A stretch of 64,000 bases of DNA. Source: Bacteroidales bacterium. GTDB taxonomy: Bacteria; Bacteroidota; Bacteroidia; Bacteroidales; F082. The stretch's first letter is position 1. Each line of letters begins with the position of its first letter. The stretch spans positions 6,630 through 70,629 of the forward strand of contig JAFZXP010000078.1 of the NCBI GenBank assembly GCA_017616735.1. Reading direction: 5' to 3'. Of the stretch, positions 36,921 through 58,528 are shown piece after piece. The notes under the pieces are model-generated. The model made no database searches. It worked only from the letters and a program-made list of their open reading frames with translations, and was not told where the DNA came from. Both the position numbers and the translations under genes were made by a program.

Positions 36921-36942
36921 TTTGCCTTGTTTTTCAACGCCG

Positions 36943-36950
36943 CAAAATTA
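36943..36950 (-). promoter_or_regulatory. Candidate -7 box TAATTTTG for the fadD-like gene
   Basis: 22 nt upstream of ATG 36920 (minus sense). Confidence 0.45.
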
Positions 36951-36978
36951 TATATAAATATAACCCAATAAAATAATT

Positions 36979-37127
36979 GTGGTGAATGGGGTGAAAAATG
37001 GGTTGAATATGCCCTTTTTAGGGGTAAAACACGCCGATTTAGGGGTGAATGAAAATTTTTGTTAATCCTATTGGTGCTCAAAATGCCCAATTCAGGGGTT
37101 AGATGAATGCTGTTGTGGGGTGAAAAT
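36979..37127. repeat. Cluster of seven GGGGTGAA-like motifs (minus sense TTCACCCC)
   Basis: GTGGTGAAT 36979, GGGGTGAAAA 36988, GGGTTGAAT 37000, AGGGGTAAAA 37020, AGGGGTGAAT 37041, CAGGGGTTAGATGAAT 37093, GGGGTGAAAA 37117. Lies between the nqrF stop and the fadD-like promoter. Confidence 0.75.
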
Positions 37128-38371
37128 TAAGCACCAAAATCGTCAAATATGATGTTTTCTTTAGGCACGCCCAAGCTGTCGAGCATGGCCAATACCGACT
37201 GTGTCATCATTGGTGGTCCGCAGAGGTAGTACTCTATTTCCTCTGGTTCGGGATGATTCTTGAGATAATTCTCGAACAAGACCTCGTGTATGTTGCCCAC
37301 ATAACCCTCCCAGTTGTCTTCCGGTAGCGGAGTCGACAACGCGATGTTGAAACTGAAGTTCGGATTATCGGCCTCAATCTGCTTGAAGTCGTCGATATAG
37401 AACAATTCCCGCAACGAACGTCCACCATACCAGAATGAGGCTTTTCGTGTGGTGTGACGTGTAAGGAATTGGTCGAGTATGTGCGAACGCATCGGTGCCA
37501 TTCCGGCGCCTCCGCCAATAAACACCATTTCGTGATCGGTGTCTTTGATGTGGAACTCGCCGTAAGGACCGCTCATTGTAATTTTATCACCAGGTTTCAA
37601 TGAGTATATATATGATGAGCAAACGCCCGGATTTACTTTCATAAAGCCGCCGTTTTTCTTGTCGAAAGGAGGCGTGGCTATACGAACATTGAGCTTGATG
37701 ATGGTGTCTTCGGCAGGATAGCTGGCCATTGAATATGCCCTGAATTGTGGCTCGGTGTTCTTCATCACAAGATCGAACATATGGAACTTTTCCCAATCGG
37801 CACGATATTGCTCGTCGACATCAATGTCTTTGTATTTAATAGTAATCTTAGGCACATCAATCTGAATGTAGCCTCCGGATTGAAATTTGAGATGCTCGCC
37901 TTCTGGTAGCTTGACTACCAGCTCTTTGATAAATGTCGCTATATTGCGGTTGCTTACAACCTCGCATTCCCATTTCTTGATGCCGAAAATTTGCGGATTT
38001 ATATGAATTTTAAGGTTTTCACGCACTTTGACCTGACAGCCCAGCCGCCAGTGCTCCATCTGTTCTTTGCGGCTGAAAAAGCCCTTTTCGGTGGGTAAAA
38101 TGGCACCTCCGCCATCCAGCACCTGACAAAGGCACATACCACAGTTGCCCTTGCCGCCACATGCCGAAGGAAGGAATATCTGCTGGTCGGCCAGACTTTG
38201 CAAAAGAGTGCCTCCTGGAGCTACCTCCAAATGCCTTTCGTCGTTGATGTCAATCGTAACTTTTCCTTGAGGAGTAAGCTTTTTCCGAACAAAAATCAAG
38301 ACCGTTACCGGAATCAAAATCGCGATAAGAAATACTGCAACGCTGAGTAATATGATAGATGTGCTGCTCAT
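37127..38371 (-). CDS. nqrF: Na+-translocating NADH:quinone reductase subunit F
   Basis: N-terminal helix, 2Fe-2S motif CGGKGNCGMC, FAD/NAD(P)-binding domain (RAYSMAS, FIGGGAGMAPM). Confidence 0.95.
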   Translation of the reverse strand: MSSTSIILLSVAVFLIAILIPVTVLIFVRKKLTPQGKVTIDINDERHLEVAPGGTLLQSLADQQIFLPSACGGKGNCGMCLCQVLDGGGAILPTEKGFFSRKEQMEHWRLGCQVKVRENLKIHINPQIFGIKKWECEVVSNRNIATFIKELVVKLPEGEHLKFQSGGYIQIDVPKITIKYKDIDVDEQYRADWEKFHMFDLVMKNTEPQFRAYSMASYPAEDTIIKLNVRIATPPFDKKNGGFMKVNPGVCSSYIYSLKPGDKITMSGPYGEFHIKDTDHEMVFIGGGAGMAPMRSHILDQFLTRHTTRKASFWYGGRSLRELFYIDDFKQIEADNPNFSFNIALSTPLPEDNWEGYVGNIHEVLFENYLKNHPEPEEIEYYLCGPPMMTQSVLAMLDSLGVPKENIIFDDFGA

Positions 38372-38992
38372 TTAGCTGAAACTTATTCCAAGGAAAGCCA
38401 TGAATGCTATTCCCATTAAACCTGTGATAATGAATGCTATACCTGTGCCTTGAAGACGTCTTGGTATCTTTGAGTATCTGATTTTCTCCCTGATTGCGGC
38501 TATGCCGACTATGGCGAGCAGCCAGCCTAGGCCCGAGCCTAATCCGTATGCTACCGACTGACCCACCGAGCTGAAATTCTTTTCCTGCATAAAAAGGCTG
38601 GCGCCTAAAATCGCACAGTTGACAGCTATCAACGGCAGAAAGATGCCCAACGAATTGTATAAAGCCGGGCTGTATTTTTCAATTACCATCTCCAGAATCT
38701 GAACTATCACAGCAATTATTGCGATAAAGAGAATAAAGGTGAGAAAATCAAGCGAGACATCGGCAAATGCAGGATTCAGCCACGACAAAGCGCCTGCCGA
38801 AAGTACATATTTGTCCAAAAGATAGTTGACCGGCACTGTTATCAGCAGCACCACAGTAACCGCCACGCCCAGTCCGAATGAAGTCTTCACGTTCTTTGAA
38901 ACCGCCAGGAATGAACACATACCCAGGAAGTAGGCGAAAACCATGTTGTCGATGAAAATCGAACGGAAGAATATGCCCATTGCGTCCATCAT
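38372..38992 (-). CDS. nqrE: Na+-translocating NADH:quinone reductase subunit E
   Basis: RnfA/NqrE-type 6-helix protein ([17 protein letters not shown]). Position in the nqrABCDEF order. Confidence 0.9.
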
Positions 38993-39606
38993 TTGCTATC
39001 CTCCTCAGGCTTTTGCAGCCAGATGATTATTCCTATGATTATCAGCGCCATAGGTGGTAAAATCATAAGGCCGTTGTTAATATATCCGAAATCGTACAAG
39101 CCTTGCGGTATCACTTGATAGCCAAGCAAGGTTCCCGAGCCGAACAGCTCACGGAAAAACGCCACGATGACGAGTATTGATCCATATCCAAGCCCATTGC
39201 CGATGCCGTCGAGCAGCGACTCCAAAGGCTTGTGGCCCATGGCAAAGGCTTCCAAACGGCCCATCACTATGCAATTGGTGATGATAAGCCCCACAAACAC
39301 TGACAGCTGCTTGCTGACATCATACATGAAGGCTTTCAAAAACTGGTCGACCAATATCACCAAAGTGGCTACTACTATCAACTGCACAATGATGCGTATT
39401 TTTGAAGGTATACCTTTGCGCAGCAATGAGATTATCAGGTTTGACAAAGCTGTCACCACGGTGACTGAAAGCGCCATCACTATGGCTGGCTTGAGCTTGG
39501 CCGTAACAGCCAATGCCGAGCAAATGCCCAGAATCAACACTGTGACCGGGTTGGCTTTGCTGAGAGGAGCCGTTATCAAGTTTATAGTCTTACTCATTGC
39601 CTTCAA
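38989..39606 (-). CDS. nqrD: Na+-translocating NADH:quinone reductase subunit D
   Basis: RnfE/NqrD-type membrane protein ([17 protein letters not shown]). Operon position. Confidence 0.9.
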
Positions 39607-40147
39607 GATATGGTAAATATAACTTCAATGTCTGATCAATCATCTTTTCGATGCCAACCGAGGTGCGAGTGGCGCCGGTAATGGCATCAACCTCAAGGCT
39701 AACGTTATTGTTGTTGAGCTGCAATTGTTTGCCTTTATATTGTGATTGATAATAATCAGTTGTGATTTCAGCACCCAAGCCCGGAGTCTCGGATTTGTGG
39801 TCAAAAACAGCGCCAGTGACAGTCTTGCCGTCGGCTGCTATGCCGATGTATCCCCAAATCGGGCCCCACAGTCCATTGCCCTTCATCGGGATTACGGTAA
39901 TCTGATTATCAATTGTATACATAGGAAGTTCGCCTCCCACCACCGAGGTGCAGTGCTGCTTGAAAAGCTGCTCCACGTTGTCGCTGTTAACTTCTGTGAT
40001 GCCGGCAGCCTTCAAGATGCTGACACGTTTCTCGTTTTCCTGATTTCTGTGTTGATAAGGCTGTAGCCACATTGCCGCGGCAGAGAGCAGCACCGACACT
40101 ATTGCCACCAGAATGATTATGTAACGGAAAATGTAACGGTCGCTCAT
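39590..40147 (-). CDS. nqrC: Na+-translocating NADH:quinone reductase subunit C
   Basis: Single N-terminal helix plus FMN-attachment motif [10 protein letters not shown]. Operon position. Shorter (185 aa) than the proteobacterial NqrC I recall. Confidence 0.85.
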
Positions 40148-41277
40148 TTGTCACTCCTTTCTGCTGCAGCCCAGCGTTTTTTGCGTTTACGTATGTTGCA
40201 TGCCACAACGCACCAGTCAATCAGCGGAGCAAACACGTTGAGTAGCAATATGGCCAACATCATGCCTTCGGGATAGCCAGGATTTGCTACACGTATCAGT
40301 ATCGCTATTGCTCCAATCAGGAAACCGTATATCCATTTGCCGATATTGGTTTGAGCCGCTGTCACGGGATCGGTGGCCATAAAGAATGTGCCGAACATGA
40401 AACCGCCCATCAGCAGATGGTAATAGAATGGTATGTCGGAAATTAGCAAACTCATCGATATTGCGCCGATGAAGGTTGCGACTATTATTCTTAAACTTGC
40501 TATGCCACTGATAATCAAAAATATACCACCTATCAAGACGGCAATTTTAGATGTCTCGCCAATGCTTCCGGAAATTGTGCCTATGAACATATCCGAAAGG
40601 CTGGGCAAGTCGTTGACACTGCCACCGTTAAAGATTGTCCCAAGTGGTGTGGCTCCGCTGTATGCATCAGCTTTATCGGCTATCCACACATTGTCGCCTG
40701 TCATCTTTGAGGGGTATGAGAAGAACAGAAATGCTCTTGCCAGCAATGCAGGGTTCACCACATTCATGCCGCTGCCGCCAAACACCTCTTTGCCAATGAT
40801 TACCGCAAAAGCTACGGCTAGTGCCAACATCCACAGAGGCACATCAACGGGCATGATTAGCGGAATCAAAAAACCCGTCACAAAATAGCCTTCATTGACA
40901 GGCTCTTTGCGTATTTCGGCGAATGTGAACTCAATGACCAAGCCTACTACGTAGCTGACCAGATACAAAGGTATGATTCTCAGCAAGCCGTAACCGATTG
41001 TCTGCCAGAATGTTGCATCGGCACCAAGCGAAAGAAAATGCTGATAGCCAATGTTCCATGTTCCGAACAGGAAGCATGGGATAAGGGCGAAAACAACTGA
41101 TATCAGCGAATGTTTCATATCGTTGGCGTCGCGTATGTGGGCTCCGTTGACGGTTACAGTGTCGGGAGTGTACAAAAAAGTCTCAAACGCCTCAAAAGTT
41201 GAGTGATATTTGGCAAATTTGCCTCCAGCCTCGAAGTTTGGCTTGATTTTATCGATATAATTCCTCAATCCCATCAA
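40144..41277 (-). CDS. nqrB: Na+-translocating NADH:quinone reductase subunit B
   Basis: RnfD/NqrB-type polytopic protein with FMN-attachment motif YSGATPLG. Operon position. Confidence 0.9.
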   Translation of the reverse strand: MMGLRNYIDKIKPNFEAGGKFAKYHSTFEAFETFLYTPDTVTVNGAHIRDANDMKHSLISVVFALIPCFLFGTWNIGYQHFLSLGADATFWQTIGYGLLRIIPLYLVSYVVGLVIEFTFAEIRKEPVNEGYFVTGFLIPLIMPVDVPLWMLALAVAFAVIIGKEVFGGSGMNVVNPALLARAFLFFSYPSKMTGDNVWIADKADAYSGATPLGTIFNGGSVNDLPSLSDMFIGTISGSIGETSKIAVLIGGIFLIISGIASLRIIVATFIGAISMSLLISDIPFYYHLLMGGFMFGTFFMATDPVTAAQTNIGKWIYGFLIGAIAILIRVANPGYPEGMMLAILLLNVFAPLIDWCVVACNIRKRKKRWAAAERSDK

Positions 41278-42557
41278 TTAGTCTCCTTTCTGATAAATTC
41301 AAGCCCTTCACGTATTATTTGCTGTATCGGGGTCTTTGACGGATCAATGACCTCGCACAAGGCAAAGTCTTCGGCATCAACCTCGTATATGCCAAGTTCC
41401 TCCATCTGGTCGATATCTTTGATAAGACACGCTTTGATAAGCTGCATTGGGTATATGTCGAATGGAAACACCTTCTCAAATTGACCTGTCATGATGTAAG
41501 GACGTGTGTCGCCATTGGTATTGGTATCGGTAAAACGCTTGAAAACAGGGCGTAGCCAACCGAAAAGCTTGTGCTTGTTGCCTTCGGGTATCACCGTTAT
41601 CTGATTATCGTAAAACCCCAGAAATCCGTCGTTTGTTATGTTGCTGCCGGTCAGCACGTTGCCGCTGATTATACGGGAGTTATCCTCAGTTTCCAAAACA
41701 GGAGTGAGGCAGGCGCCTATGCGGGTTTGATAGTAATGCCGATTGTGTACGGCCGATCCGGTTGTGGCGATAATCCGGCTGCTGTCGTAGCGTCCTGTGA
41801 GGAACAGTTTACCTATTGTGACTACATCCCGAGGGTAGCAATACCACACGACTTCGCCTTTGTTTATTGGTGACAGCGCATTTATCTGTGTTCCGACATT
41901 GCCGGCGGGATGCGGACCGCTGAATTCGGTAATCACCACGTTTTTTGCATCTGTAGAGACGCGCCATGGCACGTCTTTGCAAACGTTGATATAAACGTTG
42001 CCCTCAGTCAATTTCGAAAGCACATTGATTCCCTCAATCAACGCATCGTACTGGTTTTCAATGATAAAACCGCAATCTGGCGCCAACGGAGCCGTGTCGA
42101 ACATCGAAACGAAAATGTGTTTCGGCTTGTCGTCGGGGTTGGCTATTGTCGCATACGGACGCTGACGCATCATTGGCCAGACGCCACTTTGCAACATCTT
42201 GTCAATCAGTTTATTGCGTGACAAATCCAGAGGATTGGCAGCGGCAAAATCAATGCTGTCGTTTTTGCCGTCAGATTCAATCACAACACGCAGAATAGCT
42301 CTTTTTTCACCTCTTACTATGGCTTTCACCTTGCCTGAAACAGGGGAGGTGAAAACAACTTTCTCGTTATTTTTATCGTGAAACAGCACACTGCCAGTTT
42401 TTACCTCGTCACCTTCGGCCACATGCATTTTGGGCAAAACACCGATAAAATCGGTGGGTTTCACCGCACACAAGCTTGGCTCGAAACTTTCAGTCTGTTT
42501 CGTGGCCTCACCCTTTAAATGTATGTCCCAGCCTTTTCTTATCTTGATTTTATCCAT
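41274..42557 (-). CDS. nqrA: Na+-translocating NADH:quinone reductase subunit A
   Basis: Typical NqrA N-terminus MDKIKIRKGWDIHLKGEA if started at ATG 42557. The ORF-track start 42605 adds 16 atypical residues inside the upstream gene. 4-nt overlap with nqrB. Confidence 0.9.
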   Translation of the reverse strand: MDKIKIRKGWDIHLKGEATKQTESFEPSLCAVKPTDFIGVLPKMHVAEGDEVKTGSVLFHDKNNEKVVFTSPVSGKVKAIVRGEKRAILRVVIESDGKNDSIDFAAANPLDLSRNKLIDKMLQSGVWPMMRQRPYATIANPDDKPKHIFVSMFDTAPLAPDCGFIIENQYDALIEGINVLSKLTEGNVYINVCKDVPWRVSTDAKNVVITEFSGPHPAGNVGTQINALSPINKGEVVWYCYPRDVVTIGKLFLTGRYDSSRIIATTGSAVHNRHYYQTRIGACLTPVLETEDNSRIISGNVLTGSNITNDGFLGFYDNQITVIPEGNKHKLFGWLRPVFKRFTDTNTNGDTRPYIMTGQFEKVFPFDIYPMQLIKACLIKDIDQMEELGIYEVDAEDFALCEVIDPSKTPIQQIIREGLEFIRKETN

Positions 42558-46036: not shown

Positions 46037-46054
46037 GATTATCTTTTTAAATGG

Positions 46055-48292
46055 TTAAATTTCCTCTTTTTGTTTGATCATCTTGGCCGATTCGTCATTG
46101 CTGACAAACCAGACTATATCGTTTTCATGGAATATTGTGGAGGCTTCTGGGCTCAGAATGAAATCGTTGCCACGTTGAATGGCAATTACCATAGCCTCGT
46201 ATTTGTCTTTGAACAACGAGTCGAGCAGCGAAATCTGATGCAACGGGCTTCTCTTGGAAAGCTGCACCTTGTGAAGATTCATCTTATGATCGTGACGCTC
46301 ATGGATAAGCTCGGTGTCTTCAATGTCGAGCAAAGGCTTCACCATGTTGATGTTGTCGTCGCATCCGACAAGAGTCACTTTGTCGTATGGGTAGAACACA
46401 ATGTCTTTGTCGGGCAGATCGTATGTGTCTTTGCCACGCTCTATGCAAACCACGCTCACCTTGTATTTGTGGCGGAACTCGGTTTCCTTAAGCTTTTTGC
46501 CAACCACCTGGCTCATCGGGCTGACAACCACCCGCTCAAGATGGAAGTTTTGCTGCAGTACTTCAGGAATAATAAACGATGCTTGGCGCTGACGTTTGTT
46601 GAGGTTGTCCAAAAAACGATGCTCCAGTAGGGTGTAGAACCGCATAAATCCGTTGGAAAATGCAAGAATTATCGAGCCTACCACAGCACATCCCAAGGCC
46701 AAGAAGAAGCCGATTTTGACGTAATGCCTTATGATCATTACGATAAGCAATGTAGCCACGAGGTATCGCAACACAAAAATCAATGTGATGACGTGTTTCT
46801 CGAATATGTTTTTGGATATCAGTCGTTTGTTGGTTAGCGAGATGTTATATTTGAAGGCCATCGCCCAGATGAATGGCGATACTATTGCAAGGGTAATCAA
46901 TGTCGCGGTTATGTCGCCCCATAATCCGTTGATGTTTTTAACCACAAACGGACCTATTGCCGAGAATGCGATGATGGTGAGGGCAGCGATTATGCATCCG
47001 TAAATCACCATGTCTTTGAATTGATTCATGACAAAGGTGCGGAATGTCAAAGTCTTGTTTTCATTCACCTTGAAGCCTTCCGAATAGCTTGTCATGGCAT
47101 CTTTCCACTTGGTTGGAATCTTAGGGTTGATCCATGTGTATACAGGCTTGGCAAGCCTCATTATATAAGGTGTGAAGAAAGTGGTCACAATTGATACGGT
47201 GACTATGATAGGGTAGAGGTAGTCGTCAATTACTTTAAAGCTAAGGCCCAAAGAGGCGATAATAAATGAAAACTCGCCGATTTGGCAGAAGCAGAAGCCC
47301 GATTTTAAGGCTGTTTGTATGTCACGGCCCGAGATAAGCATGCCAAATGTGGCACTCAATGTCTTGATAATCATTACTGTGAGCGAGATTATCACTACCG
47401 GCCATGTATATTGTATTAGGATTTGCGGATTGACCAGCATTCCAACGGAGACAAAGAATATTGCTCCAAAAAGGTTTTGAATTGGTTTTACAAGTTTGTG
47501 AATGATGTCGGCTTCAAGTGTCTCGGCAAGGATTGAGCCCATCACAAAGGCGCCCAAAGCCGAACTGAAACCGGCGTAGTTGGCCAGCATAACCATGGCG
47601 AAACAAAGGCCCACGGCTATGATGACAAGTGTTTCTTCCGTCATGAATTTTCTGATTAGTCTCAGAAAAGACGGAATCAGATAGATGCCGAAAATAAACC
47701 AGATTATGAGGAAGAAAACGAGTTTTACCATGCTAAGCAGCAGCTCGATGCCGTCAAAGGCATTGCCTACTGAAAGCGTGGAGAGAATAACCATCAGGAT
47801 GACGGCCACGAGGTCCTCCACCACCAACGCCCCAATGACGTCGGCGGTGAATTTCTCGCGTTTAAGTTTTAAGTCGTCAAAAGCTTTGACGATGATACTT
47901 GTTGATGAAATGGAAAGCATGCAACCGAGGAATATGCAGTTCATTTTCTGCCATCCGAACAGTTTTCCGACCAGGAAACCCGAAGAAAACATTATCACCA
48001 GCTCGGTGAGCACCATAATGGCTCCCGGTCCGCCAACCTTCTTGAGCTTTTTGAACGAGAACTCAAGACCGATTGCGAAAAGCAGGAACACCATACCAAT
48101 CTCGCTCCAGGTGTGAACGCTGTTAGGGTCGTTGACAACCGGGAAATAGGTGAAATACGGCCCAATAAGGAACCCGGCTACGATGTAGCCGAGTACCAAG
48201 GGCTGTTTCAACCATTTGAAGATTACCGTGGTGATGCCTGCCGTGATAAGAATCAGGGCGAGGTCAAAAAACAATGCCGGTACGCCTTCCAT
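46055..48292 (-). CDS. CPA2 family cation:proton antiporter with two C-terminal RCK_C (TrkA-C) domains
   Basis: About 12-helix Na_H_exchanger-type domain (LKQPLVLGYIVAGFLIGP). Two TrkA-C-like modules (VGKKLKETEFRHKYKVSVVCIERG; LFKDKYEAMVIAIQRGNDFI). 745 aa. Confidence 0.85.
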   Translation of the reverse strand: MEGVPALFFDLALILITAGITTVIFKWLKQPLVLGYIVAGFLIGPYFTYFPVVNDPNSVHTWSEIGMVFLLFAIGLEFSFKKLKKVGGPGAIMVLTELVIMFSSGFLVGKLFGWQKMNCIFLGCMLSISSTSIIVKAFDDLKLKREKFTADVIGALVVEDLVAVILMVILSTLSVGNAFDGIELLLSMVKLVFFLIIWFIFGIYLIPSFLRLIRKFMTEETLVIIAVGLCFAMVMLANYAGFSSALGAFVMGSILAETLEADIIHKLVKPIQNLFGAIFFVSVGMLVNPQILIQYTWPVVIISLTVMIIKTLSATFGMLISGRDIQTALKSGFCFCQIGEFSFIIASLGLSFKVIDDYLYPIIVTVSIVTTFFTPYIMRLAKPVYTWINPKIPTKWKDAMTSYSEGFKVNENKTLTFRTFVMNQFKDMVIYGCIIAALTIIAFSAIGPFVVKNINGLWGDITATLITLAIVSPFIWAMAFKYNISLTNKRLISKNIFEKHVITLIFVLRYLVATLLIVMIIRHYVKIGFFLALGCAVVGSIILAFSNGFMRFYTLLEHRFLDNLNKRQRQASFIIPEVLQQNFHLERVVVSPMSQVVGKKLKETEFRHKYKVSVVCIERGKDTYDLPDKDIVFYPYDKVTLVGCDDNINMVKPLLDIEDTELIHERHDHKMNLHKVQLSKRSPLHQISLLDSLFKDKYEAMVIAIQRGNDFILSPEASTIFHENDIVWFVSNDESAKMIKQKEEI

Positions 48293-48298
48293 GTATTG

Positions 48299-51200
48299 TT
48301 ATTTCTTGATGACCTTCTTCATCCAGATATTTTCATCGCTTCTGATCTGAAGGATGTAGGAGCCGCTGAACATATCGCTCATGTCGATATTGGTGTTCAA
48401 ACCGTTCTCCGCGTTTTCAGTCTTAACGAGCACCACCTGACCGACGCTGTTGTAAACAGTAATGCTGACTTCAGCTGTGATGTTGGCGATTGACACGTTG
48501 ATCACGTCGTTGGTCGGGTTAGGATGTACGTTGAGGGCTGCTGCGTCGATCTCGTCGATGCCAGTGCCGCGCAACAGGATGGTGAGGGCTTCTGATGGCT
48601 CACTGTCGCCGCAACCGTCGGTGTGACCAACTGCTGAGAGCTGTACAGCGCCGTTCGGATAACCTTCAACCCAAGCGATTGTCACTTCGTTGCCGTTGGC
48701 TGTCATCACACCTGCGTCGGCTGGTTCGAGAGTCCAAGTGTAGCCGATGAACATCTCGCTGCCATCGATGGTGTAAGTGGTTTCAGCCTCCTGATTGTAC
48801 ACATCTGTCGGACCTTCAGGCATCGGCAGAGCGTCGACATGTGTGAAGGTGACGTCGATGCTGTGTGTGTATGAGTTCAACTGGCAGTCGGTATATTCTA
48901 TGGCGAGTGTCACATTGCCGCTATTATAGTCTTCTGCTGAAGGATAGTACTCTATTCTCTCAGCTGTTTGAACGACGACGTTACCTGTTCCTGATGTGGT
49001 CCAGCTTACAAGTGAAGTCCATGACGGGTCATTGAACTGATAATCGACTGTGAATGGATCAGCCAAGCATGTGGTGTACTGGTCGATGCAAGTCAATTCA
49101 GGAATGCCTGAATAGCTGACTGTTGTCGAAACCGAGGCTGCGCCGCAACCAAAGGCTGCGATTGTAATTTCAACGCTGCCGTTAGCGATATCTGCTTCTC
49201 CGAATGTGTAGACATCTCCATCGAATTCACCGTCGCCGAGGCTTGTCATTATGATATCATCAGCGTTGTATGCGATATATGCTTCACTGAGGTCAATCAC
49301 GCCCATGCATGCTGTAGGAGCAAGGAATGACGGCAATAACTCAATAGATACTGCCGGTAAGAATGTCACCTGCATATCATCTGACAATGATTCTGAATGC
49401 TTTGTAGCTGTCAGAGTGAGTGTTACGATGCCGTTCTCAAGGTCTTGAGCACCTGGAGTGTATATAGGATTCATGATGGTGGCATCACTGAATGTACCGT
49501 CACCTGATGTTGTCCATTCCATTGATTCCTGGTTGGCAACATAACCGTTCAACTGAACGTCGTCTGGGCATGTCTCAACGTCCATACCGGCGCTGACTGT
49601 GAGGCTTCTGTCTCTCGGGAGGATGACAAAGTCAATCCATGCGCAGTCGCTTCCGCTTGACACGCTGCTGTCTTTAGTATATCTCCAAGTGAAGCTGTGC
49701 ACACCTGCTGTAACGGAATATTGTGCTCTTGTCCAGTTTACTGAACCTGACCAATGGGATATTTCCTCATTGTCGATCAAGAAAAACAGTTTATCGTAGT
49801 TGTTTTCTGATGATACTTTGTAGTAGAATGCTATTGAATCGGCTGCACCGACTTCGTAAGTCAAGCGGAGCTCGGTTTGTGAGTTGTGGCTGATGGCACC
49901 AGACTGCATGCAATAATTGCCTTCATATGGATTTTCATCACTGAATCTCCAAGGAGTGGCAGATGTGTTTGTCCAAAGTGTCGGATCAAGCTCGCCAAGT
50001 TCGAAGTCTTCTACATTGAGACCGATCTTTGCTGTAAAGTCGCTTGTGGCTGTGTATGCGCCTGAAGCGACATCAAGACTGAATTCTGCAGCGAAACCTG
50101 ATGGTGCGGCACCTACGTAGACTTCGAAAGCCACTGTGGCTGTACTGCCGGCGTCAATGCTGTTGACTGTAACGGTCGGATCGGTTAAGATAGTCAGGAA
50201 GATGTTGTTCATCACGAGTGTGGCGTCAGTTGCCCATGAATCGGCGTTGCCCTTGTTCTCGATAGGGAAGATGAGGCTTGCTCTCTCACCTGGATCGAGG
50301 CGGCCGTTGCCATTGCCTTCGATTTCTGCGATTGTAAGACTGCCAATGGTGAACTCAGGAGCGTAAGCTTTCAAAACGATATGATTCTCATAGACATCGT
50401 CACCGCTTGTGATGACAACACTGAACTCAATGTTTGTCTTGTTAGGCACATTGTCAGAGATGGTGAATGCGAAGGCATTGTCGATGTTGAGTGTGGCATT
50501 TGAGTTGATGGCTGAGAATTCAGCAGTGCCACTGGTGATGGTCACATATTCAGATTCTGATGTGAGAGTTGCTGTGCCAGCCGGAGCTGTCTCGCTACCC
50601 ACGTTCTTGAACACGAGATCCAGACCTGATTCGTCACCGAAGTTGAGCTGTGTGGCTCCGTTAACAAGGGTGTAGTTGTCGATGATGACGTATGGTCCGC
50701 TGGCCGGAATCACTTCAATTTCAGCTTCATAGCGGAGATAGTTCTGGCCTGTCACTGTGAGATGAAGCACTGTTGGAGGCACCTGCGGGATAATGTCGAT
50801 ATTTTGGGCACTTCCGGTAGCAGTTGCTACAGCCACGATTTCGAGGTTCTCGTCTTCGCCTTTTGTCAAAGCGATGGTTGTGCCTTCAGGAGCGGTGATC
50901 TGGAACTGGTTGAAACCAGCCAACTGCACGTTCTGGTGCTGTACTGTCATTGTTTCAGGCACCTGTGTGTAGATGCGCAAGAAAGCGTCGCAGTGAGCGG
51001 TGAACATGATATAAGTGATGTCCTTGTCATCAGTGTTGTAAGGCCATGATGTCTCCTGGAGGAAATATTTGCCAGCCACATTACCGAATGCCGGGCGCCA
51101 GTTGCCTCTGTAGGCATAAGCCGGAGTGTTGGTGTTGGTTGGATATGTAGGCATAAAGCTAGGGTCAAACTGGTCGTAAACGCCCCAAACGAAAGCGTCG

Positions 51201-52927
51201 TTCACGAATGAATAAGACACCTCGGTAGGAGAGAGCACGCCCACAGCACCTGCGTTCTGTCCGTTGTAAGTGCGGCGCATCCATTTCTCGGTGAAGCAGT
51301 TGCCGTTTGAACCGGTGTAGTTGAACATACCTGTCTGGCAGTTGATTGACATAACGAAAGGCATCTTGCCCACGTTGGTCAACTGGTCGATGTGCTGGTT
51401 ACGCACTGCAGGTTCGCCCCAGCCTTCATCAAGACCGTGGTCGCGGTGCTGTACCCAGAAGGCGCCTGCGTTGACAGCATTAACCACCTGCTCTGGTGAA
51501 CCACCGGTCCAGCCACCCATCTCTGATGGAGTTGCAGGAATGTAGTTCGTTCCTGAAGGTCCGAAATAGCTCACCACCTGTGAGGTGTTCTGTGCCTCTG
51601 ACCATACATTGCCTGGTGTGCCGCTGTAAATGCAGTTGATACGCAGTGGGTTATAACCATGTGCGCGCATGTAACCGCCAAACACCTCTGAGCAAAGCTG
51701 GAACCAACGTTCGGTCTGCCATCCTAAAGCAGTAATAGGACTTGTGTAGAAGTCCGCATTCATGTTAGGATTGGTGTATTCGTATTCAATCTGCTTGTCG
51801 GCCATCATTGCGGCTTCTGTAGCATCAGCTGCAACCAAGCGTGAGAATACCATTTCAGGAAGGTTGTCATTACCTGTAACGTCGGCATACTGGATGTCGG
51901 TGATACATGTGCCGCTGTAAGGGTGGCTCACTGAGATGGCAGGAATACCTTGTGCCATATTGGTGTTGTGGTCACCAAACAGAAGCACTGCCACTGGAGC
52001 GATGTCCCATGTGTTGTATGCGTTGTGGAACCATGTCTTCATCTGTGCTGTTGTTGTTGCAGGCATTTCATCAAGACGAACAATCTGGGTGAGAATACCC
52101 TGCTGCATACGGAAGTCTCTCAAACGTGTAGCCGGCTCGACAAATCCGTCGTTGTTAGGGATAACGATGATGTATTCGGCACCGTCTTCGCCGTCACGAA
52201 GCCACTGCTGCATTCTTGCTTCGTAGTCGATTACTGGCAAGCTGCTGTAGTTCATGATGTTCTGTTCGAGGATAGGGTCGAAGTAAGGTGAACGCAGACG
52301 GTTGTCACCAAATTGACCGTTGCCGCCCACAAATTCAACAGCCATTTCAATGTTGTGATAAACAATGGCTTCCTTGGTTACAGGGTTGAATCTGACAGGG
52401 CTTACGCTGATGTTCACAACGTCGACGCCACGAATCTGTGAAGGCTCGCTGACGCTGGCAAACTCAGCCGGGTAGAAAGCGTTCTCAGAATAAACTTTCA
52501 TGTCTTTAGTGTAGTTCATGTCAGGCTCTTCGTTCTCCATCTGGATGCCCAACGATGGTTCTACATTGACATTTTTAATAACTTGTTGTTCGTAGCTCAC
52601 CACATGAAGCACTGCCTGTGCACCCTGTGGGATAGCGATAGTGCGGCTGTATACAGGCACGTTCGGCATGCCTTTCGAGTTAGGAAGGCTGATGTCGGCA
52701 ATGCCGATGGTCTGCATCTCTTCACCGTTGTAGGTGAATGATGTGAGGCTCATCTGATCGATGGTGTAATCGATAGAAACATTGCCTCTGGTCTGCTCAG
52801 TCATCTGAAGACCAGTCTTTCCGTGGTTAAATTGGAAAGTGCGGACTTCCTGAGCTGTCATTGCAGTAGTAATGCCCAGCACAAACAATGTCAGACAAAC
52901 TAATCTGCGGAAGTTGTTCTTTTTCAT
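48299..52927 (-). CDS. Gingipain-like C25 family cysteine peptidase, T9SS cargo (1542 aa)
   Basis: Paralog of 42539..46036 (NSKGMPNVPVYSRTIAIPQGAQA; HRDHGLDEGWGEP; MSINCQTGMFN; EDFELGELDPTLW...PYEGNYCM). It adds about three TTSGDGTF-type repeats and ends in a T9SS CTD (LNVHPNPTNDVINV...GSYILQI...KKVIKK). Confidence 0.8.
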   Translation of the reverse strand: MKKNNFRRLVCLTLFVLGITTAMTAQEVRTFQFNHGKTGLQMTEQTRGNVSIDYTIDQMSLTSFTYNGEEMQTIGIADISLPNSKGMPNVPVYSRTIAIPQGAQAVLHVVSYEQQVIKNVNVEPSLGIQMENEEPDMNYTKDMKVYSENAFYPAEFASVSEPSQIRGVDVVNISVSPVRFNPVTKEAIVYHNIEMAVEFVGGNGQFGDNRLRSPYFDPILEQNIMNYSSLPVIDYEARMQQWLRDGEDGAEYIIVIPNNDGFVEPATRLRDFRMQQGILTQIVRLDEMPATTTAQMKTWFHNAYNTWDIAPVAVLLFGDHNTNMAQGIPAISVSHPYSGTCITDIQYADVTGNDNLPEMVFSRLVAADATEAAMMADKQIEYEYTNPNMNADFYTSPITALGWQTERWFQLCSEVFGGYMRAHGYNPLRINCIYSGTPGNVWSEAQNTSQVVSYFGPSGTNYIPATPSEMGGWTGGSPEQVVNAVNAGAFWVQHRDHGLDEGWGEPAVRNQHIDQLTNVGKMPFVMSINCQTGMFNYTGSNGNCFTEKWMRRTYNGQNAGAVGVLSPTEVSYSFVNDAFVWGVYDQFDPSFMPTYPTNTNTPAYAYRGNWRPAFGNVAGKYFLQETSWPYNTDDKDITYIMFTAHCDAFLRIYTQVPETMTVQHQNVQLAGFNQFQITAPEGTTIALTKGEDENLEIVAVATATGSAQNIDIIPQVPPTVLHLTVTGQNYLRYEAEIEVIPASGPYVIIDNYTLVNGATQLNFGDESGLDLVFKNVGSETAPAGTATLTSESEYVTITSGTAEFSAINSNATLNIDNAFAFTISDNVPNKTNIEFSVVITSGDDVYENHIVLKAYAPEFTIGSLTIAEIEGNGNGRLDPGERASLIFPIENKGNADSWATDATLVMNNIFLTILTDPTVTVNSIDAGSTATVAFEVYVGAAPSGFAAEFSLDVASGAYTATSDFTAKIGLNVEDFELGELDPTLWTNTSATPWRFSDENPYEGNYCMQSGAISHNSQTELRLTYEVGAADSIAFYYKVSSENNYDKLFFLIDNEEISHWSGSVNWTRAQYSVTAGVHSFTWRYTKDSSVSSGSDCAWIDFVILPRDRSLTVSAGMDVETCPDDVQLNGYVANQESMEWTTSGDGTFSDATIMNPIYTPGAQDLENGIVTLTLTATKHSESLSDDMQVTFLPAVSIELLPSFLAPTACMGVIDLSEAYIAYNADDIIMTSLGDGEFDGDVYTFGEADIANGSVEITIAAFGCGAASVSTTVSYSGIPELTCIDQYTTCLADPFTVDYQFNDPSWTSLVSWTTSGTGNVVVQTAERIEYYPSAEDYNSGNVTLAIEYTDCQLNSYTHSIDVTFTHVDALPMPEGPTDVYNQEAETTYTIDGSEMFIGYTWTLEPADAGVMTANGNEVTIAWVEGYPNGAVQLSAVGHTDGCGDSEPSEALTILLRGTGIDEIDAAALNVHPNPTNDVINVSIANITAEVSITVYNSVGQVVLVKTENAENGLNTNIDMSDMFSGSYILQIRSDENIWMKKVIKK

Positions 52928-52959
52928 TTCGATTAATTTAAATTGTTAATATTTTCTAA

Positions 52960-53001
52960 AACTCTTAACTGTCAACTGTAAACTGTCAACTGTAAACTCT
53001 T
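52960..53001. repeat. Heptamer array AACTCTT AACTGTC AACTGTA AACTGTC AACTGTA AACTCTT
   Basis: Overlaps the rnfA stop (53000-53002). In minus sense it reads AGTTTAC/AGTTGAC directly after the stop. Confidence 0.85.
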
Positions 53002-53584: not shown

Positions 53585-53593
53585 GGCACTGTA

Positions 53594-54184
53594 TTATTTA
53601 GTTTTCTTTAATCTGTTGACTATTGCGATGAGGTAACCCAAGGCGATGAAAGCACCCGGAGCGAGCACGAAGATTAGAATGGTCTGTGCATCCTCAGGGA
53701 GGAATCTCATGTTGAAAATGCTTCCGCTACCCAAGATTTCACGGATAGAACCGAGCACTGTCAAGGCGAAGGTGAAGCCTAAGCCCATGCCTGCGCCGTC
53801 AAGTATTGAAGGCCATACAGGATTCTTCGAAGCGAAAGCCTCGGCGCGGCCGAGAACTATACAGTTCACAACGATCAATGGGATAAATAAGCCCAAAGTT
53901 TCGTAGATATCCGGTACGTAGGCCTGCATAACCAATTGAACTACAGTCACAAATGATGCGATAACCACGATAAAGCAAGGAATACGCACTTTGTCGGGAA
54001 TGAAGTTTTTCAATAATGAAATCACGAGGTTTGACATTATCAAAACGAATGTTGTCGCAAGTCCCATCGACATGCCGTTGATGGCGCTAGTTGTCGTGGC
54101 TAGTGTTGGGCAGCATCCTAACAAAAGGACCAGAATAGGATTTTCCTTGATAAGTCCTTTGGTGAAAGTTTTCCAGTTACTCAT
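53594..54184 (-). CDS. rnfE: Rnf electron transport complex subunit E
   Basis: [20 protein letters not shown], typical RnfE. Operon position. Confidence 0.9.
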
Positions 54185-54764
54185 TGTTTCCTCCTTTCAT
54201 GAATTGGTCTTTGTTAGCCTCGAAACCGTCGACAGCTCTCTGAATGGCTTCCGACACGGCTCTAGAGCTGATTGTCGCTGCGGTGATGGCATCGACGTCA
54301 CCGCCGTCTTTCTTCACTCTAAGTGTGAATTGTTTAGGATCTTTGCCATCAAACTGGCCTTTGAACTTGTCGTTCACCATGTTAGCTCCCAATCCAGGGG
54401 TCTCGGCTTGTGACAATATCGACACCTTATTAATAATACCGTTTTTCAACAGTCCGACCATCAGTTCGATTTTGCCTCCGAAACCGTTCATCGAGTATGT
54501 CTTTACGGCAGCGCCGATGAAGTTGTTTTCGGCATCGAATGCCAGGTTGTAAGTGAGGTCTTCAATCACAAGAGTCTCTGTTTTGACAATTTCAACATCA
54601 GTTTTCAAAACCTCGTTGATGGCTTTGAGATTCTTGTTGGCTTCCACCTGGTCGATGGCAGGCTTTGTCAGGTTGTAAATAAATCCAAGCACTCCGCCCG
54701 ACACTATGGCTATAACCATCAGGGCGATGAGCATATTCTTTAATGTTGATTCTTTCTTTGCCAT
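54177..54764 (-). CDS. rnfG: Rnf electron transport complex subunit G
   Basis: N-terminal helix plus FMN-binding domain with [13 protein letters not shown]. Operon position. Confidence 0.85.
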
Positions 54765-54790
54765 AATTTCAAAATTTTAAGATTCAACAA

Positions 54791-55774
54791 TTATTTGACA
54801 ACGCCGAAGCGTTTTGGTTTGAAGCCTTTGTTGATGAGCGGCACCACGGCGTTCATGATAAGGATTGCGAACGACACGCCTTCAGGATACTGTCCCCACA
54901 GACGGATGATGACTGTGATGGCGCCGATACCGATACCGTAAACGATTCTGCCACCGGTTGTCATAGGTGATGTCACCATATCGGTTGCCATGAAGAAGGC
55001 ACCAAGGATGAGACCGCCATAAACGAGATGATACCAAGGAGCGATGTACTGTGTCGGATCTACCAGATAGCAGATGCCTGTCATGATGAACACAGTGAGC
55101 AGGATGCTCAATGGTGTCCAAATGTCGATGACTTTGGTGATGAGCAGGTAGATGGCGCCGATGAGCAATGCTATTGCGCAGATTTCACCGAAAGCGCCGC
55201 CACGGTTGCCAAGTATCATGTCGAGGAACTGTAAGTCGCCCGATTTGGCGAGTGTTCCAGGATCACCTTCTTTCAACAGACTCAATGGGGTAGGACCTGT
55301 CACTGCATCAGCAAAGAATCCTGATTCGAAGATTGGCTGAGCCTTTGGCCAGGTTGTCATGGCTGTCGGAAATGACACAAGCATGAACACACGGCCGACC
55401 AATGCCGGGTTGAACGGGTTCTTGCCCAAGCCACCGAACGACATCTTGGCGATTCCGATTGAAACCACGCTGCCGACGATAACCATCCACAACGGAAGGT
55501 TGGCCGGAACGTTGAAGGCCAGCAAAAGACCTGTCAGAGCGGCTGAGCCGTCGTTGATGGTCAGAGGGCCTTTGAATAAAAATTTCTGAATGAGATACTC
55601 AGTCAGCATGCAAGCTGCCACCGAAACTATGGTCAGGCGCAGGGCATACCAGCCGAAATAATAAATGGCTACAAGCAAAGCAGGGAGCAGGGCTATGATT
55701 ACCATGCTCATGATTTTCTTGACGCTTAAATCTCCGTGAACATGCGGAGAACCTGATATTGTTAACTGATTCAT
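54791..55774 (-). CDS. rnfD: Rnf electron transport complex subunit D
   Basis: RnfD/NqrB-type polytopic protein (SGSPHVHG start, DAVTGPTPL FMN-site region). Operon position. Confidence 0.9.
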   Translation of the reverse strand: MNQLTISGSPHVHGDLSVKKIMSMVIIALLPALLVAIYYFGWYALRLTIVSVAACMLTEYLIQKFLFKGPLTINDGSAALTGLLLAFNVPANLPLWMVIVGSVVSIGIAKMSFGGLGKNPFNPALVGRVFMLVSFPTAMTTWPKAQPIFESGFFADAVTGPTPLSLLKEGDPGTLAKSGDLQFLDMILGNRGGAFGEICAIALLIGAIYLLITKVIDIWTPLSILLTVFIMTGICYLVDPTQYIAPWYHLVYGGLILGAFFMATDMVTSPMTTGGRIVYGIGIGAITVIIRLWGQYPEGVSFAILIMNAVVPLINKGFKPKRFGVVK

Positions 55775-55776
55775 GG

Positions 55777-57126
55777 CTATTTCTGATTACGTGAACGTAT
55801 TAATTGTCCTGTCTTGGTCTTGCCGTAGCGGATATAGTCGGCCAACGGGATGTTGGCAGGGCATGTGAATTCGCATGAGCCGCATTCGATGCAGTCCATG
55901 ATGTTGTGTTTTTCTGTTTCCTCAAACTTGTTCTGACGTGCGAGACGGTTCAGGAGGTAAGGTTCAAGGCCCATTGGGCAGGCTTGCATGCACTTGCCGC
56001 AACGGATGCAGTTGCTGACCTTACGCGGCTGAGCGTCTTTTTCATTGAGCATCAAGATTCCAGAGGTTCCTTTGATGGTCGGGAATGTGGTTACACTCAC
56101 CGACTTGCCCATCATAGGTCCGCCGTTGATGAGGTTCGCTGTGTCTTCAGGTAGACCGCCGGCTGCTTCGATAAGCAAATTGGCAGGTGTTCCGATTCTT
56201 GTCAAGAAGTTAGATGGCTTTTTAACAGATTTACCTGTCACTGTGACGACGCGGTAAACCAACGGTTTGTTCTTCTGTACAGCCTCATAAATAGCGAATG
56301 TCGAAGCTACGTTGACTACGACACATCCGGTTTCGATAGGCAGTTTGCCTGATGGCACCTCGCGTCCGGTCACCGACTTGATGAGCTGTTTTTCACCGCC
56401 TTGAGGATATTTGGTCTTCAAAGGCTGAATCTCGATGCCCTCGAAATAACTGTCGCTCTTCACGATTTCGTCGAGCTTCTTGGCGGCTTCGATTTTGTTG
56501 ACCTCGATTCCGACCACGCCCTTAGGAGCGTTAACGGCTTTCATTATCACTTTCACGCCAACGAGGAACTCGTAAGGTTTCTCAATCAACAGTCGGTTGT
56601 CGCAGGTGAGGTAAGGCTCGCATTCCGCCGCGTTGATGATTACGTATTCGGCTTTCTTGTCCTTTGGTATCATCAGCTTGACGTAGGTTGGGAATGTAGC
56701 GCCGCCCAAACCGACTATGCCGTGCTGTTTGATGCGTTCAACAATCTCTTCGCTTGAGAGGGTGATATCTTTTACTAAAGTGTCGCTGGTGTCAATGCCT
56801 TCTAGCCATTCGTCGCCTTCCACATCGATGAAGATAGCCGGTTTGCGGTAGCCGGTGTGGTCCATCACGTCGTCAATTTTATTGACTGTGCCGCTCACTG
56901 ATGAGTGTACGTTGGCGCTGATGAAGCCCTTGGCTGTGGCGATGAGCTGTCCCACCTTCACCTTGTCGCCCTTTGCGACTATAGGCTCTGCTGGAGCGCC
57001 CAAGCACTGACCGAGCGGGATGATAACCTGCTTCGGTATCTCAAATGTGATGATAGGCTGGTCCGACGAAAGCTTGTTTTCTTCCGGATGAACGCCACCT
57101 TTTGGAAATGTCTTAATTGGATTCAT
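55777..57126 (-). CDS. rnfC: Rnf electron transport complex subunit C
   Basis: Two 4Fe-4S motifs CIRCGKCMQACP and CIECGSCEFTCP. NADH/FMN-binding-type middle region (GIVGLGGATFPT). Confidence 0.9.
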   Translation of the reverse strand: MNPIKTFPKGGVHPEENKLSSDQPIITFEIPKQVIIPLGQCLGAPAEPIVAKGDKVKVGQLIATAKGFISANVHSSVSGTVNKIDDVMDHTGYRKPAIFIDVEGDEWLEGIDTSDTLVKDITLSSEEIVERIKQHGIVGLGGATFPTYVKLMIPKDKKAEYVIINAAECEPYLTCDNRLLIEKPYEFLVGVKVIMKAVNAPKGVVGIEVNKIEAAKKLDEIVKSDSYFEGIEIQPLKTKYPQGGEKQLIKSVTGREVPSGKLPIETGCVVVNVASTFAIYEAVQKNKPLVYRVVTVTGKSVKKPSNFLTRIGTPANLLIEAAGGLPEDTANLINGGPMMGKSVSVTTFPTIKGTSGILMLNEKDAQPRKVSNCIRCGKCMQACPMGLEPYLLNRLARQNKFEETEKHNIMDCIECGSCEFTCPANIPLADYIRYGKTKTGQLIRSRNQK

Positions 57127-57129
57127 ACC

Positions 57130-58041: not shown

Positions 58042-58054
58042 ATTTTTAGCGGTG

Positions 58055-58062
58055 CAAAATTA
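58055..58062 (-). promoter_or_regulatory. Candidate -7 box TAATTTTG for rnfB
   Basis: 13 nt upstream of ATG 58041 (minus sense), in the 53-nt rseC-rnfB spacer. Confidence 0.4.
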
Positions 58063-58094
58063 TTATAATTTTATTAATAAAACAAGTGAAAAAT

Positions 58095-58505
58095 TCACTT
58101 AATTTCATACTTGAATTCGTCTTTCAGTTTGTCTTTGAAAAAGTGTAAAATGCAGTAGTAAACTGCCACGATTCCAATTCCAATTAGTGCCGAAATCCAT
58201 TCTTTGACTGATAAGTTACTGAGAATCACAATTATGGCAACCAGCAGAAATGCCGGTATGAAATATGCGAACAGGGCGGCTTTGTTGCCTTGACTGGCAT
58301 TCATGATAATTCTAACAGGTTGACCCACAATAAATTCCTGGTCGGCTGGCTTGGGCACTGTAAGGCGTTTTTCGGTCATCTCCGACATGCCGCAGGCCGA
58401 CTTGATTCCGCATGAGCCGCATGAGCTGGAGCTAAGTATTTCTATTTCAAGTTCTTCGTCTGAAATTTTTGTTACAACTCCTGGATGTGAAACGTGTTCT
58501 TCCAT
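58095..58505 (-). CDS. rseC: RseC/MucC family (SoxR-reducing system) protein
   Basis: GVVTKISDEELEIEILSSSSCGSCGIKSACG followed by two helices. As I recall, the usual gene preceding rnfB in Bacteroidales. Confidence 0.75.
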   Translation of the reverse strand: MEEHVSHPGVVTKISDEELEIEILSSSSCGSCGIKSACGMSEMTEKRLTVPKPADQEFIVGQPVRIIMNASQGNKAALFAYFIPAFLLVAIIVILSNLSVKEWISALIGIGIVAVYYCILHFFKDKLKDEFKYEIK

Positions 58506-58520: not shown

Positions 58521-58528
58521 CAAAGATA
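58521..58528 (-). promoter_or_regulatory. Candidate -7 box TATCTTTG for rseC
   Basis: 15 nt upstream of ATG 58505 (minus sense). Confidence 0.4.

Follow-up and report, generated by a model that had tools for sequence, protein, structure and literature searches.

The window analysed here is a stretch of 64,000 nt from an uncultured Bacteroidales bacterium (GenBank assembly GCA_017616735.1, contig JAFZXP010000078.1). On its minus strand, 16 consecutive open reading frames (ORFs; 37127-58505) follow one another in the order rseC, rnfBCDGEA, C25L, CPA2, C25S, nqrABCDEF; thus, the genes for the two redox complexes Rnf and Nqr lie in a single co-directional block. We use C25L and C25S for the genes of the longer and the shorter of two gingipain-family (C25) cysteine peptidases, which are cargo of the type IX secretion system (T9SS), and CPA2 for the gene of a CPA2-type antiporter. 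This gene content, with its coordinates and strand, had been proposed in a reading made from the letters alone (hereafter, the sequence-only reading) and was borne out; the gene identities were confirmed with Pfam and NCBIfam profiles. The genes, in the direction of transcription, are as follows.

58095-58505 (-): rseC, RseC/MucC family, 136 aa; RseC_MucC PF04246, 95 bits
57130-58041 (-): rnfB, Fe-S subunit; Pfam FeS and Fer4, NCBIfam rnfB models
55777-57126 (-): rnfC; RnfC_N, Complex1_51K, SLBB, Fer4
54791-55774 (-): rnfD; PF03116, 388 bits
54177-54764 (-): rnfG; FMN_bind
53594-54184 (-): rnfE; PF02508, 238 bits
53000-53584 (-): rnfA; TIGR01943, 248.9 bits (cutoff 229.3)
48299-52927 (-): C25L, gingipain-family cysteine peptidase, T9SS cargo, 1542 aa; Propeptide_C25, Peptidase_C25, CARDB, Por_Secre_tail
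46055-48292 (-): CPA2-type cation:proton antiporter, 745 aa; Na_H_Exchanger PF00999, 197 bits (cutoff 26), and two C-terminal TrkA_C (RCK_C) domains, PF02080
42539-46036 (-): C25S, paralogous gingipain-family peptidase, T9SS cargo, 1165 aa; Propeptide_C25, Peptidase_C25, Peptidase_C25_C, Por_Secre_tail
41274-42557 (-): nqrA; NF003761, 541 bits (cutoff 450)
40144-41274 (-): nqrB; PF03116, 336 bits
39590-40147 (-): nqrC; FMN_bind
38989-39597 (-): nqrD; PF02508, identical to proteins named NqrD by NCBI
38372-38992 (-): nqrE; PF02508
37127-38371 (-): nqrF; TIGR01941, 633 bits (cutoff 295)

The six Rnf subunits occur together, each with its Pfam match and RnfA above the TIGR01943 cutoff, and their order (rnfB-C-D-G-E-A) is that of Chlorobi/Bacteroidetes (PMC4014512). 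The start of rnfB was placed 4 codons further in by the metagenome gene caller (299 aa). Likewise, nqrA to nqrF form one cluster that includes the non-Rnf subunits NqrA and NqrF, both above their cutoffs. No apbE gene (ApbE flavin transferase) was found within 37127-58505, and an Rfam scan of the whole window returned no family; hence, no riboswitch or leader of a known type is present in the block.

Among solved structures, the Thermus NapA Na+/H+ antiporter (4bwz; 119 bits) is the closest to the CPA2 membrane domain, and KefC (83 bits) comes next. The protein shares the CPA2 transmembrane fold with NapA (Thermus thermophilus) and KefC (Escherichia coli), but differs from both in an extension of about 200 residues that contains hydrophobic segments and leads into the two TrkA_C domains, with no TrkA_N. 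Since its score with NCBIfam TIGR00932 (2a37) was below the cutoff (168.4 vs 238.3 bits), we regard it as a divergent member of the family, to which neither Na+ nor K+ can be assigned as the substrate.

C25L and C25S are evidently old paralogues (36% identity over 1115 aa), which scored 145 and 169 bits with Peptidase_C25 (PF01364; cutoff 23). His487 and Cys519 of C25S align with the catalytic His and Cys of RgpB, as do the corresponding residues of C25L, and the dyad (His-Gly and Cys) was invariant in all 48 C25 homologues collected. Both proteins are above the cutoffs of the T9SS sorting-domain models PF18962 and TIGR04183, and their N-termini, MKKNNFRRLVCLTLFVLGITTAMTAQ and MIRNFVYRVVVFALLMLTFVPAGAQ, resemble signal peptides as read from the sequence. 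They are thus best described as putatively intact, secreted or surface-attached C25 cysteine peptidases. The possibility of PorU, the T9SS sortase, was considered and rejected: C25S matched NF033707 with 58.8 bits (cutoff 420) over residues 212-379 only, and C25L had no match. Like the gingipains RgpB and Kgp of Porphyromonas gingivalis (PDB 1cvr, 4ief, 4rbm), the two proteins have a C25 propeptide, a caspase-like domain with the dyad, an Ig-like domain and a T9SS C-terminal sorting domain. However, there is little sequence similarity to RgpB (phmmer E = 7e-14 and 54 bits over the whole sequence, with matched stretches of about 380 residues in total); the window proteins are much larger (1165 and 1542 aa), carry CARDB and unassigned domains in place of haemagglutinin/adhesin domains, and are encoded within a presumed energy-metabolism operon.

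Recurrence of the gene order

The search for related loci was anchored on CPA2, with one genome per GTDB species and 10-kb flanks; the proteins of the window were mapped onto the 79 loci obtained (loci of related genomes are given below by L numbers). The homology search with CPA2 returned at least 8000 candidates at E <= 1e-30, and the 120 matches listed had 62-99% identity to the window protein. The full order rnf-C25L-CPA2-C25S-nqr-AMP-ligase, in which the last gene encodes an AMP-dependent ligase, was found in 18 species representatives (L004-L020 and L028), all of which are metagenome-assembled genomes (MAGs) of Bacteroidales from the rumen or ruminant gut. Their identity to the window was 78-87% for CPA2, mostly 90-99% for Rnf, 64-94% for Nqr and 63-77% for the C25 proteins. 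Variant loci were found at 58-74% CPA2 identity, several of them in Candidatus Limimorpha; CPA2 homologues below about 58% identity had no rnf, nqr or C25 neighbour. The search with NqrD gave only matches of 92-100% identity, none informative on the region upstream of nqrA outside the clade.

The same gene order was present on independent ENA and Logan metagenome contigs, so that the adjacency, for which the sequence-only reading had proposed a synteny check, recurs well beyond this genome. The source is uncultured and its relatives are all MAGs or metagenome contigs, so a chimeric contig, in which assembly or binning joined unrelated loci, had to be considered. This explanation is scarcely credible and, in effect, refuted, as the order and the junctions were replicated in assemblies from different projects and assemblers, on contigs of 100 kb to 1.4 Mb.

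No description of an rnf-nqr linkage was found in the searchable literature, and none is mentioned in a 2025 review of RNF and NQR (PMC12174285) or in studies on the origin of NQR (PMC4014512) and on flavinylated systems (PMC8238504). In Bacteroides thetaiotaomicron, nqr is a stand-alone six-gene locus (BT1155-BT1160) with unrelated flanks, BT1154 and BT1161 (bioRxiv 10.1101/2022.10.21.513251), and the rnf locus was complemented from its own native promoter (PMC12718326). The window resembles this species in the six-gene nqrA-F cluster and in the seven-gene rnf cluster with an rseC-like gene, but there the two clusters are not joined. With the rumen Prevotella (P. bryantii, P. ruminicola), it shares the complexes, the order of electron flow, the habitat, and the gene orders rnfBCDGEA and nqrABCDEF. 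In Prevotella, however, rnf and nqr are apparently separate, with UniProt accession runs far apart in P. bryantii (PMC6560451), and no antiporter or protease genes are reported between the operons, whereas here all form one co-directional block with promoter boxes at its head only (see below). The statement of the sequence-only reading that rnf and nqr are separate elsewhere agrees with B. thetaiotaomicron, P. bryantii and the sister clades, in the last of which nothing Nqr-like lies within 10 kb downstream of rnfA.

Junctions, promoter boxes and terminators

The gaps within rnf were 3, 2, 26, -8 and 9 nt (negative values denote overlaps), and the re-measured gaps within nqr were -1, -4, -8, -4 and 0 nt. 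Between the units, 72 nt separate rnfA from C25L, 6 nt C25L from CPA2, and 18 nt CPA2 from C25S; C25S and nqrA overlap by 19 nt. The sequence-only reading had given the same rnf and inter-unit values; its nqr values (-4, -4, -17, -4 and 0) differ from ours solely by which start codon, ATG or TTG, is taken for nqrB and nqrD. It had omitted the rseC-rnfB gap, which is 53 nt long and has a promoter box of its own. The features outside the coding sequences that bear on transcription are listed below, together with the C25S/nqrA overlap.

58521-58528 (-): -7 box before rseC, TATCTTTG, in the 72-nt divergent intergenic region common to rseC and a BrkB-like gene
58055-58062 (-): -7 box before rnfB, TAATTTTG, 21 nt 5' of the rnfB ATG, inside the rseC-rnfB gap
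52928-52999 (-): rnfA-C25L spacer, 72 nt; distal heptamer array, proximal part of about 40 nt conserved within the species
42539-42557 (-): overlap of the C25S stop and the nqrA start, 19 nt, ATGGATAAAATCAAGATAA, nearly invariant in sequence across species
36921-37126 (-): gap that ends the unit, 206 nt; four TTYACCCC repeats (36988-37124), then the TAATTTTG box (36943-36950) of the AMP-dependent ligase gene (35148-36920)

Among the 18 species, the C25S/nqrA overlap was 19 nt in 17 and 16 nt in L004. The other junctions were also short: 20-72 nt (mode, 26 nt) for rnfA-C25L, 6-19 nt for C25L-CPA2 (15/18), and 11-30 nt for CPA2-C25S (17/18).

The consensus of the Bacteroidota -7 promoter box, known from Bacteroides promoters, is TAnnTTTG. 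We scored two kinds of operon signals, the canonical -7 box and hairpin terminators; a sigma-70 consensus scan is not meaningful for Bacteroidota promoters, and only its terminator list was used. In orthologous loci, the box was present before rseC in 9/9 (at -22 to -25), before rnfB in 17/17 (mostly at -21 to -34, with -21 or -22 the commonest), and before the downstream AMP-ligase gene in 18/18 (at -28 to -32). Before C25S, nqrA and each internal rnf or nqr gene, it was found in none of the 17-19 loci scored for each; it preceded C25L in 1/19 and CPA2 in 3/19 loci, with a chance background of about 2% per junction. Relaxed patterns of the box were likewise rare before C25L, C25S and nqrA. 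In the rest of the window, the box behaved as a marker of long upstream gaps, being present before 10 of the 15 genes with a gap of 50 nt or more vs 4 of the 29 with tighter gaps. The coding strand has no TAnnTTTG from the rnfB promoter (58062) to a point inside nqrB (40973), a distance of 17 kb in which about 5.8 occurrences are expected (P about 0.003). The box scan also upheld the statement in the sequence-only reading that the rnfA-C25L gap has no TAnnTTTG.

No terminator-like hairpin was found in any junction of the block, and the 72-nt rnfA-C25L spacer had no significant RNA structure (-7.2 kcal/mol, z = -0.18). The gaps of 6 and 18 nt and the 19-nt overlap leave no room for a terminator. 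In L009, L011 and L012, the C25L-CPA2 gap is 86-120 nt long and holds a strong hairpin with a U-run (14 bp, z = -5.8 in L011), followed directly by TATCTTTG; comparable punctuation by terminator and box was seen in L027 and L033. Such punctuation is therefore recognisable when present, and the window is without it. The ends of Logan assembly contigs (library type not given) fall inside genes.

As for the rnfA-C25L spacer, the heptamer array described in the sequence-only reading is real: TRF placed it at 52959-52998, with a 7-mer repeated 5.7 times or, in longer units, a perfect 14-mer repeated 2.3 times. It occupies only the distal half and not, as had been stated, the whole gap, and in most species the spacer is 20-27 nt long. 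In the L091 strain (CPA2 99% identical), the array is replaced by an unrelated sequence with a perfect 11-bp hairpin (z = -4.9; L091 1199-1289); the 40 nt adjoining the C25L start are identical in the window and L091, and the distal spacer is hypervariable. The array is thus strain-specific and unstructured, and we rejected it as a regulatory element, since it is absent from other species, is replaced in a 99%-identical strain and forms no structure.

In the shallow clade, 16/19 loci have a leader motif, A(A/C)CC(A/T/G)(A/T)T, 18 to 21 nt before the C25L start (window 52928-52950; L004-L020), which is probably ordinary short-range conservation. A leader AACC(A/T)TTTAAA shared by both C25 genes was also considered and rejected: it is conserved at -18 to -21 of C25L in those 16/19 loci, but the strict pattern occurred in 3/19 loci for C25S, where looser AACCAT-like strings are seen, and was absent in deeper lineages. 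In L033 (Ca. Limimorpha avicola, DZDN01000076.1; 10001-16297), CPA2 has no stop codon, and the frame runs into the Met and signal peptide of C25S (...AISNK/MKTYPF...) to give an ORF of 2098 aa. This may be a MAG error, or an extreme tightening of the junction with C25S translated from an internal start.

The region between the nqrF stop and the AMP-ligase box (36988-37124) is C-rich and unstructured (z = -0.56). The window has six TTYACCCC matches in all, against 2.4 expected, and four of them lie within these 137 nt on the minus strand. The AMP-ligase genes of L021, L022 and L029 also have repeats of this kind upstream, and L029 is without nqr. On sequence grounds, the cluster could be an array of regulator-binding sites for the ligase gene or a Rho-type termination region of the long unit.

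Transcription, origin and function of the block

The genes of the block lie on the same strand, are joined by short gaps or overlaps, and have no internal promoter or terminator signals, as is characteristic of a single operon. The boxes at the head only, the lack of a terminator in any junction and the conserved C25S/nqrA overlap together make one transcript the best reading, and rnfB to nqrF would most likely form one transcription unit. We accordingly favour, with a probability of roughly 0.6, a super-operon that is specific to one lineage, a genus-level clade of rumen Bacteroidales that is uncultured and related to Candidatus Limimorpha. In this super-operon, five once separable co-directional units (rnfBCDGEA, C25L, CPA2, C25S and nqrABCDEF) would have lost the promoters and terminators between them and would be transcribed jointly from the rnfB promoter through nqrF, over about 21 kb; rseC with its own promoter would lie just 5', and the transcript would end in the 206-nt C-rich gap ahead of the AMP-ligase gene.

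The proposed physiology would run in series. Rnf would oxidise reduced ferredoxin to form NADH, with the pumping of Na+ or H+, and Nqr would re-oxidise this NADH to form menaquinol, with the pumping of Na+. The NapA-like CPA2 protein, with its presumed RCK_C gating domains, might convert or balance the resulting cation gradient, and a single promoter would then set the level of the whole sodium-cycle chain from ferredoxin through NADH to quinone. The two C25 peptidases, which would be expressed along with the chain, could be functional contributors (peptide supply) or passengers beside a strongly expressed operon. The functional link from Rnf through NADH to Nqr is itself well founded and already known from Prevotella: in rumen Prevotella, Rnf regenerates NADH from reduced ferredoxin, Nqr feeds menaquinone and fumarate reductase, and both build up the ion gradient (PMC10542786, PMC8516057). 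To drive rnf, the antiporter and nqr from one promoter would be a sensible means of expressing such a chain, and this part of the sequence-only reading we regard as well founded.

Several points weigh against the super-operon. The joint transcription is inferred from sequence signals, and the ion specificities of Rnf, Nqr and CPA2 and the physiological coupling are likewise inferred. Promoters that are non-canonical or placed within upstream coding sequences may exist; in other species, TAnnTTTG recurs inside rnfA, about 295 nt 5' of C25L (11/19 loci), and inside C25S, about 1790 nt 5' of nqrA (8/19), neither of which is present in this window. It would be unusual for a major respiratory enzyme to depend on a promoter that lies about 16 kb away and is linked to it by read-through alone. 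The housekeeping proteins of the 18-species clade are about 90-98% identical, so that the conservation of synteny is partly just inherited. Finally, the punctuation is labile between lineages and even between strains, as in the hairpin after rnfA in L091, which suggests that strict co-transcription is not under strong selection.

The chief alternative is that the block is a conserved neighbourhood in which rnf, C25L-CPA2-C25S and nqr are transcribed apart from non-canonical or embedded promoters, the tight junctions being the result of genome compaction. We consider this unlikely, yet it has to be taken seriously. Relatives use their own promoters for CPA2 (L009, L011, L012, L021, L022 and L027), for nqrA (L021-L023) and for C25L (L023-L027), the boxes inside rnfA and C25S recur in other species, and Bacteroidota promoters stray from the consensus, of which our scan covered the -7 box. 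On the other hand, 17 kb of the coding strand of the window are without the box, relaxed boxes are also rare before C25L, C25S and nqrA, and gaps of 6 and 18 nt with a 19-nt overlap are too small for a terminator. Moreover, the relatives with their own promoters show an expanded gap and a terminator, and the window has neither.

The deeper relatives differ in how far the neighbourhood is assembled and punctuated. In L033, the order is rnfA, 21 nt, a C25 gene, a terminator and box, a second C25 gene, a terminator, CPA2, C25S, 37 nt and nqrA. In L021 and L022, C25L follows rnfA after 19 nt, CPA2 and nqrA have their own boxes, and C25S is missing. The horse-gut clade (L023-L027) has C25L-CPA2-C25S(-nqr) with junctions of 1-27 nt, and in 4/4 loci C25L is preceded by a box at -51; rnf was not within reach of the C25L-CPA2 locus in L023, L025 and L027. 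In L024, two inserted genes, one for a Big_2 protein and, on the opposite strand, one for a Type ISP restriction-modification protein, have come between rnfA and C25L (1373-5661) and displaced rnf.

The sister clades (RnfA identity about 77%) keep the upstream context of a BrkB-like gene, rseC and rnfBCDGEA, and have no CPA2 or nqr in the 10 kb downstream of rnfA, where PKD/Ig T9SS cargo or unrelated genes are found. In L085, L086, L088 and L089, rnfA is followed, past gaps of about 150-200 nt, by large T9SS cargo genes on the same strand, two or three in number, with PKD or Ig_2 domains and a Por_Secre_tail (about 10700-20600); it seems that T9SS cargo genes of various kinds, C25 genes among them, tend to settle behind rnfA. 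Foreign genes lie between rseC and rnfB in two relatives: a 643-aa opposite-strand gene in L083 (3569-5500) and an AAA-ATPase/PDDEXK gene in L086 (3190-4770), which also has a 23S_rRNA_IVP gene between rnfC and rnfD (7299-7703). The insertions before rnfB support a separate rnfB promoter, and rseC probably marks a separate or additional transcription start.

The flanks downstream of CPA2 were compared as follows.

Window: CPA2 - C25S - nqrA-F - AMP-ligase - OmpA/PD40 - FolD - Ffh - sulfatase
L090: CPA2 - small T9SS protein - OmpA/PD40 - radical SAM - FolD - Ffh - sulfatase
L029: CPA2 - AMP-ligase

By this comparison, C25S-nqr behaves as an insertion/deletion in a conserved backbone that runs from CPA2 to AMP-ligase/OmpA-PD40/FolD/Ffh. 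The neighbourhood may have been assembled in an ancestor of the Limimorpha-like group, and the internal terminators and promoters would have eroded later, in the rumen clade of the window. The fusion thus appears to be lineage-specific and to have arisen through loss of punctuation.

The literature derives nqr from the duplication of an rnf operon in the Chlorobi/Bacteroidetes (PMC4014512, PMC12174285), and both operons are co-directional here, rnfBCDGEA followed by nqrABCDEF, so that the adjacency might be a relic of that ancient tandem duplication. This is highly improbable and, in effect, refuted. RnfA and NqrE are only 42% identical, similar to the 44.5% in P. bryantii with its separate loci (PMC6560451); the linkage is limited to a shallow clade, the sister clades being without nqr within 10 kb of rnfA; and C25S-nqr acts as an insertion/deletion in the conserved backbone.

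The sequence-only reading had gone further than a single unit, and suggested that the block could be one module that couples secreted proteolysis to sodium energetics. This was partly supported: the look of one unit and the layout conserved in 18 species speak, at the sequence level, for the first part. The second part, the purpose, fared badly: nothing beyond adjacency speaks for it, C25S is lost in L021 and L022, other T9SS cargo follows rnfA in the sister clades, and the placement of promoters is labile. Stated in full, the block would be a selected module in which C25 proteolysis supplies amino acids whose fermentation yields reduced ferredoxin for Rnf and Nqr, with the co-regulation of protease and pump as its purpose; we regard this as improbable. 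C25L-CPA2-C25S-nqr does stay together with junctions of 1-27 nt down to about 58-70% CPA2 identity (L023-L027 and L033), the catalytic dyad is intact in 48/48 sequences of both paralogues, and a C25 gene directly follows rnfA in three lineages (the clade of the window, L021 and L033). However, L021 and L022 do without C25S, neither C25 nor nqr genes adjoin the CPA2 homologues of 50-65% identity, and the cargo after rnfA in the sister clades is of the PKD/Ig type with no proteases, which suggests a general tendency for T9SS cargo; the promoter placement varies by lineage, so that co-regulation is not conserved.

Also doubtful is the view that, in an abundant uncultured rumen/hindgut lineage, the C25 peptidases and the NapA-like antiporter have true roles in one sodium-cycle operon and are no mere passengers, so that a single promoter would keep extracellular proteolysis, cation homeostasis and the pump chain from ferredoxin through NADH to quinone in fixed proportion. 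Under this view, the 19-nt C25S/nqrA overlap, together with the CPA2/C25S ATGA overlaps or the missing stop codon in relatives, might reflect translational coupling of a secreted protease and a respiratory complex, which we hold with similar reserve. What is new in the favoured super-operon is the conserved operon-level arrangement; its components are all known, and no new enzyme or mechanism is involved.

In Bacteroidales of the gut and rumen, ion pumping by redox enzymes falls mainly to Rnf and Nqr, and recent work shows that the two operate in series and keep ferredoxin and NADH in balance while succinate and propionate are formed. If the super-operon is real, the fused Rnf-antiporter-Nqr unit would be genomic evidence for one working module and would provide a natural system for the study of co-regulation. 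The comparative series, in which terminators and promoters are retained, reduced in number or gone altogether, illustrates how a long operon may be assembled by the erosion of intergenic signals. As the organisms are abundant and uncultured, the arrangement may matter for rumen energetics.

Some other genes of the window were recorded. On the minus strand, 15517-17220 and 17223-19025 encode two CotH-kinase-like paralogues in tandem, both with Fn3_assoc and CHB_HEX_C_1 domains and the upstream one with a T9SS Por_Secre_tail; the gene immediately before the pair (19032-21104) is ADP-forming acetyl-CoA synthetase-like. On the plus strand, the 1138-aa protein encoded at 11034-14450 has N-terminal Endonuclease_1 (residues 34-259) as its sole Pfam match, with the other 880 or so residues unassigned, and is possibly a large secreted nuclease. 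Also on the plus strand, two ORFs of 399 and 645 aa (24919-26118 and 26239-28176) have no Pfam match at E <= 1e-5, and each is preceded by a TAnnTTTG box.

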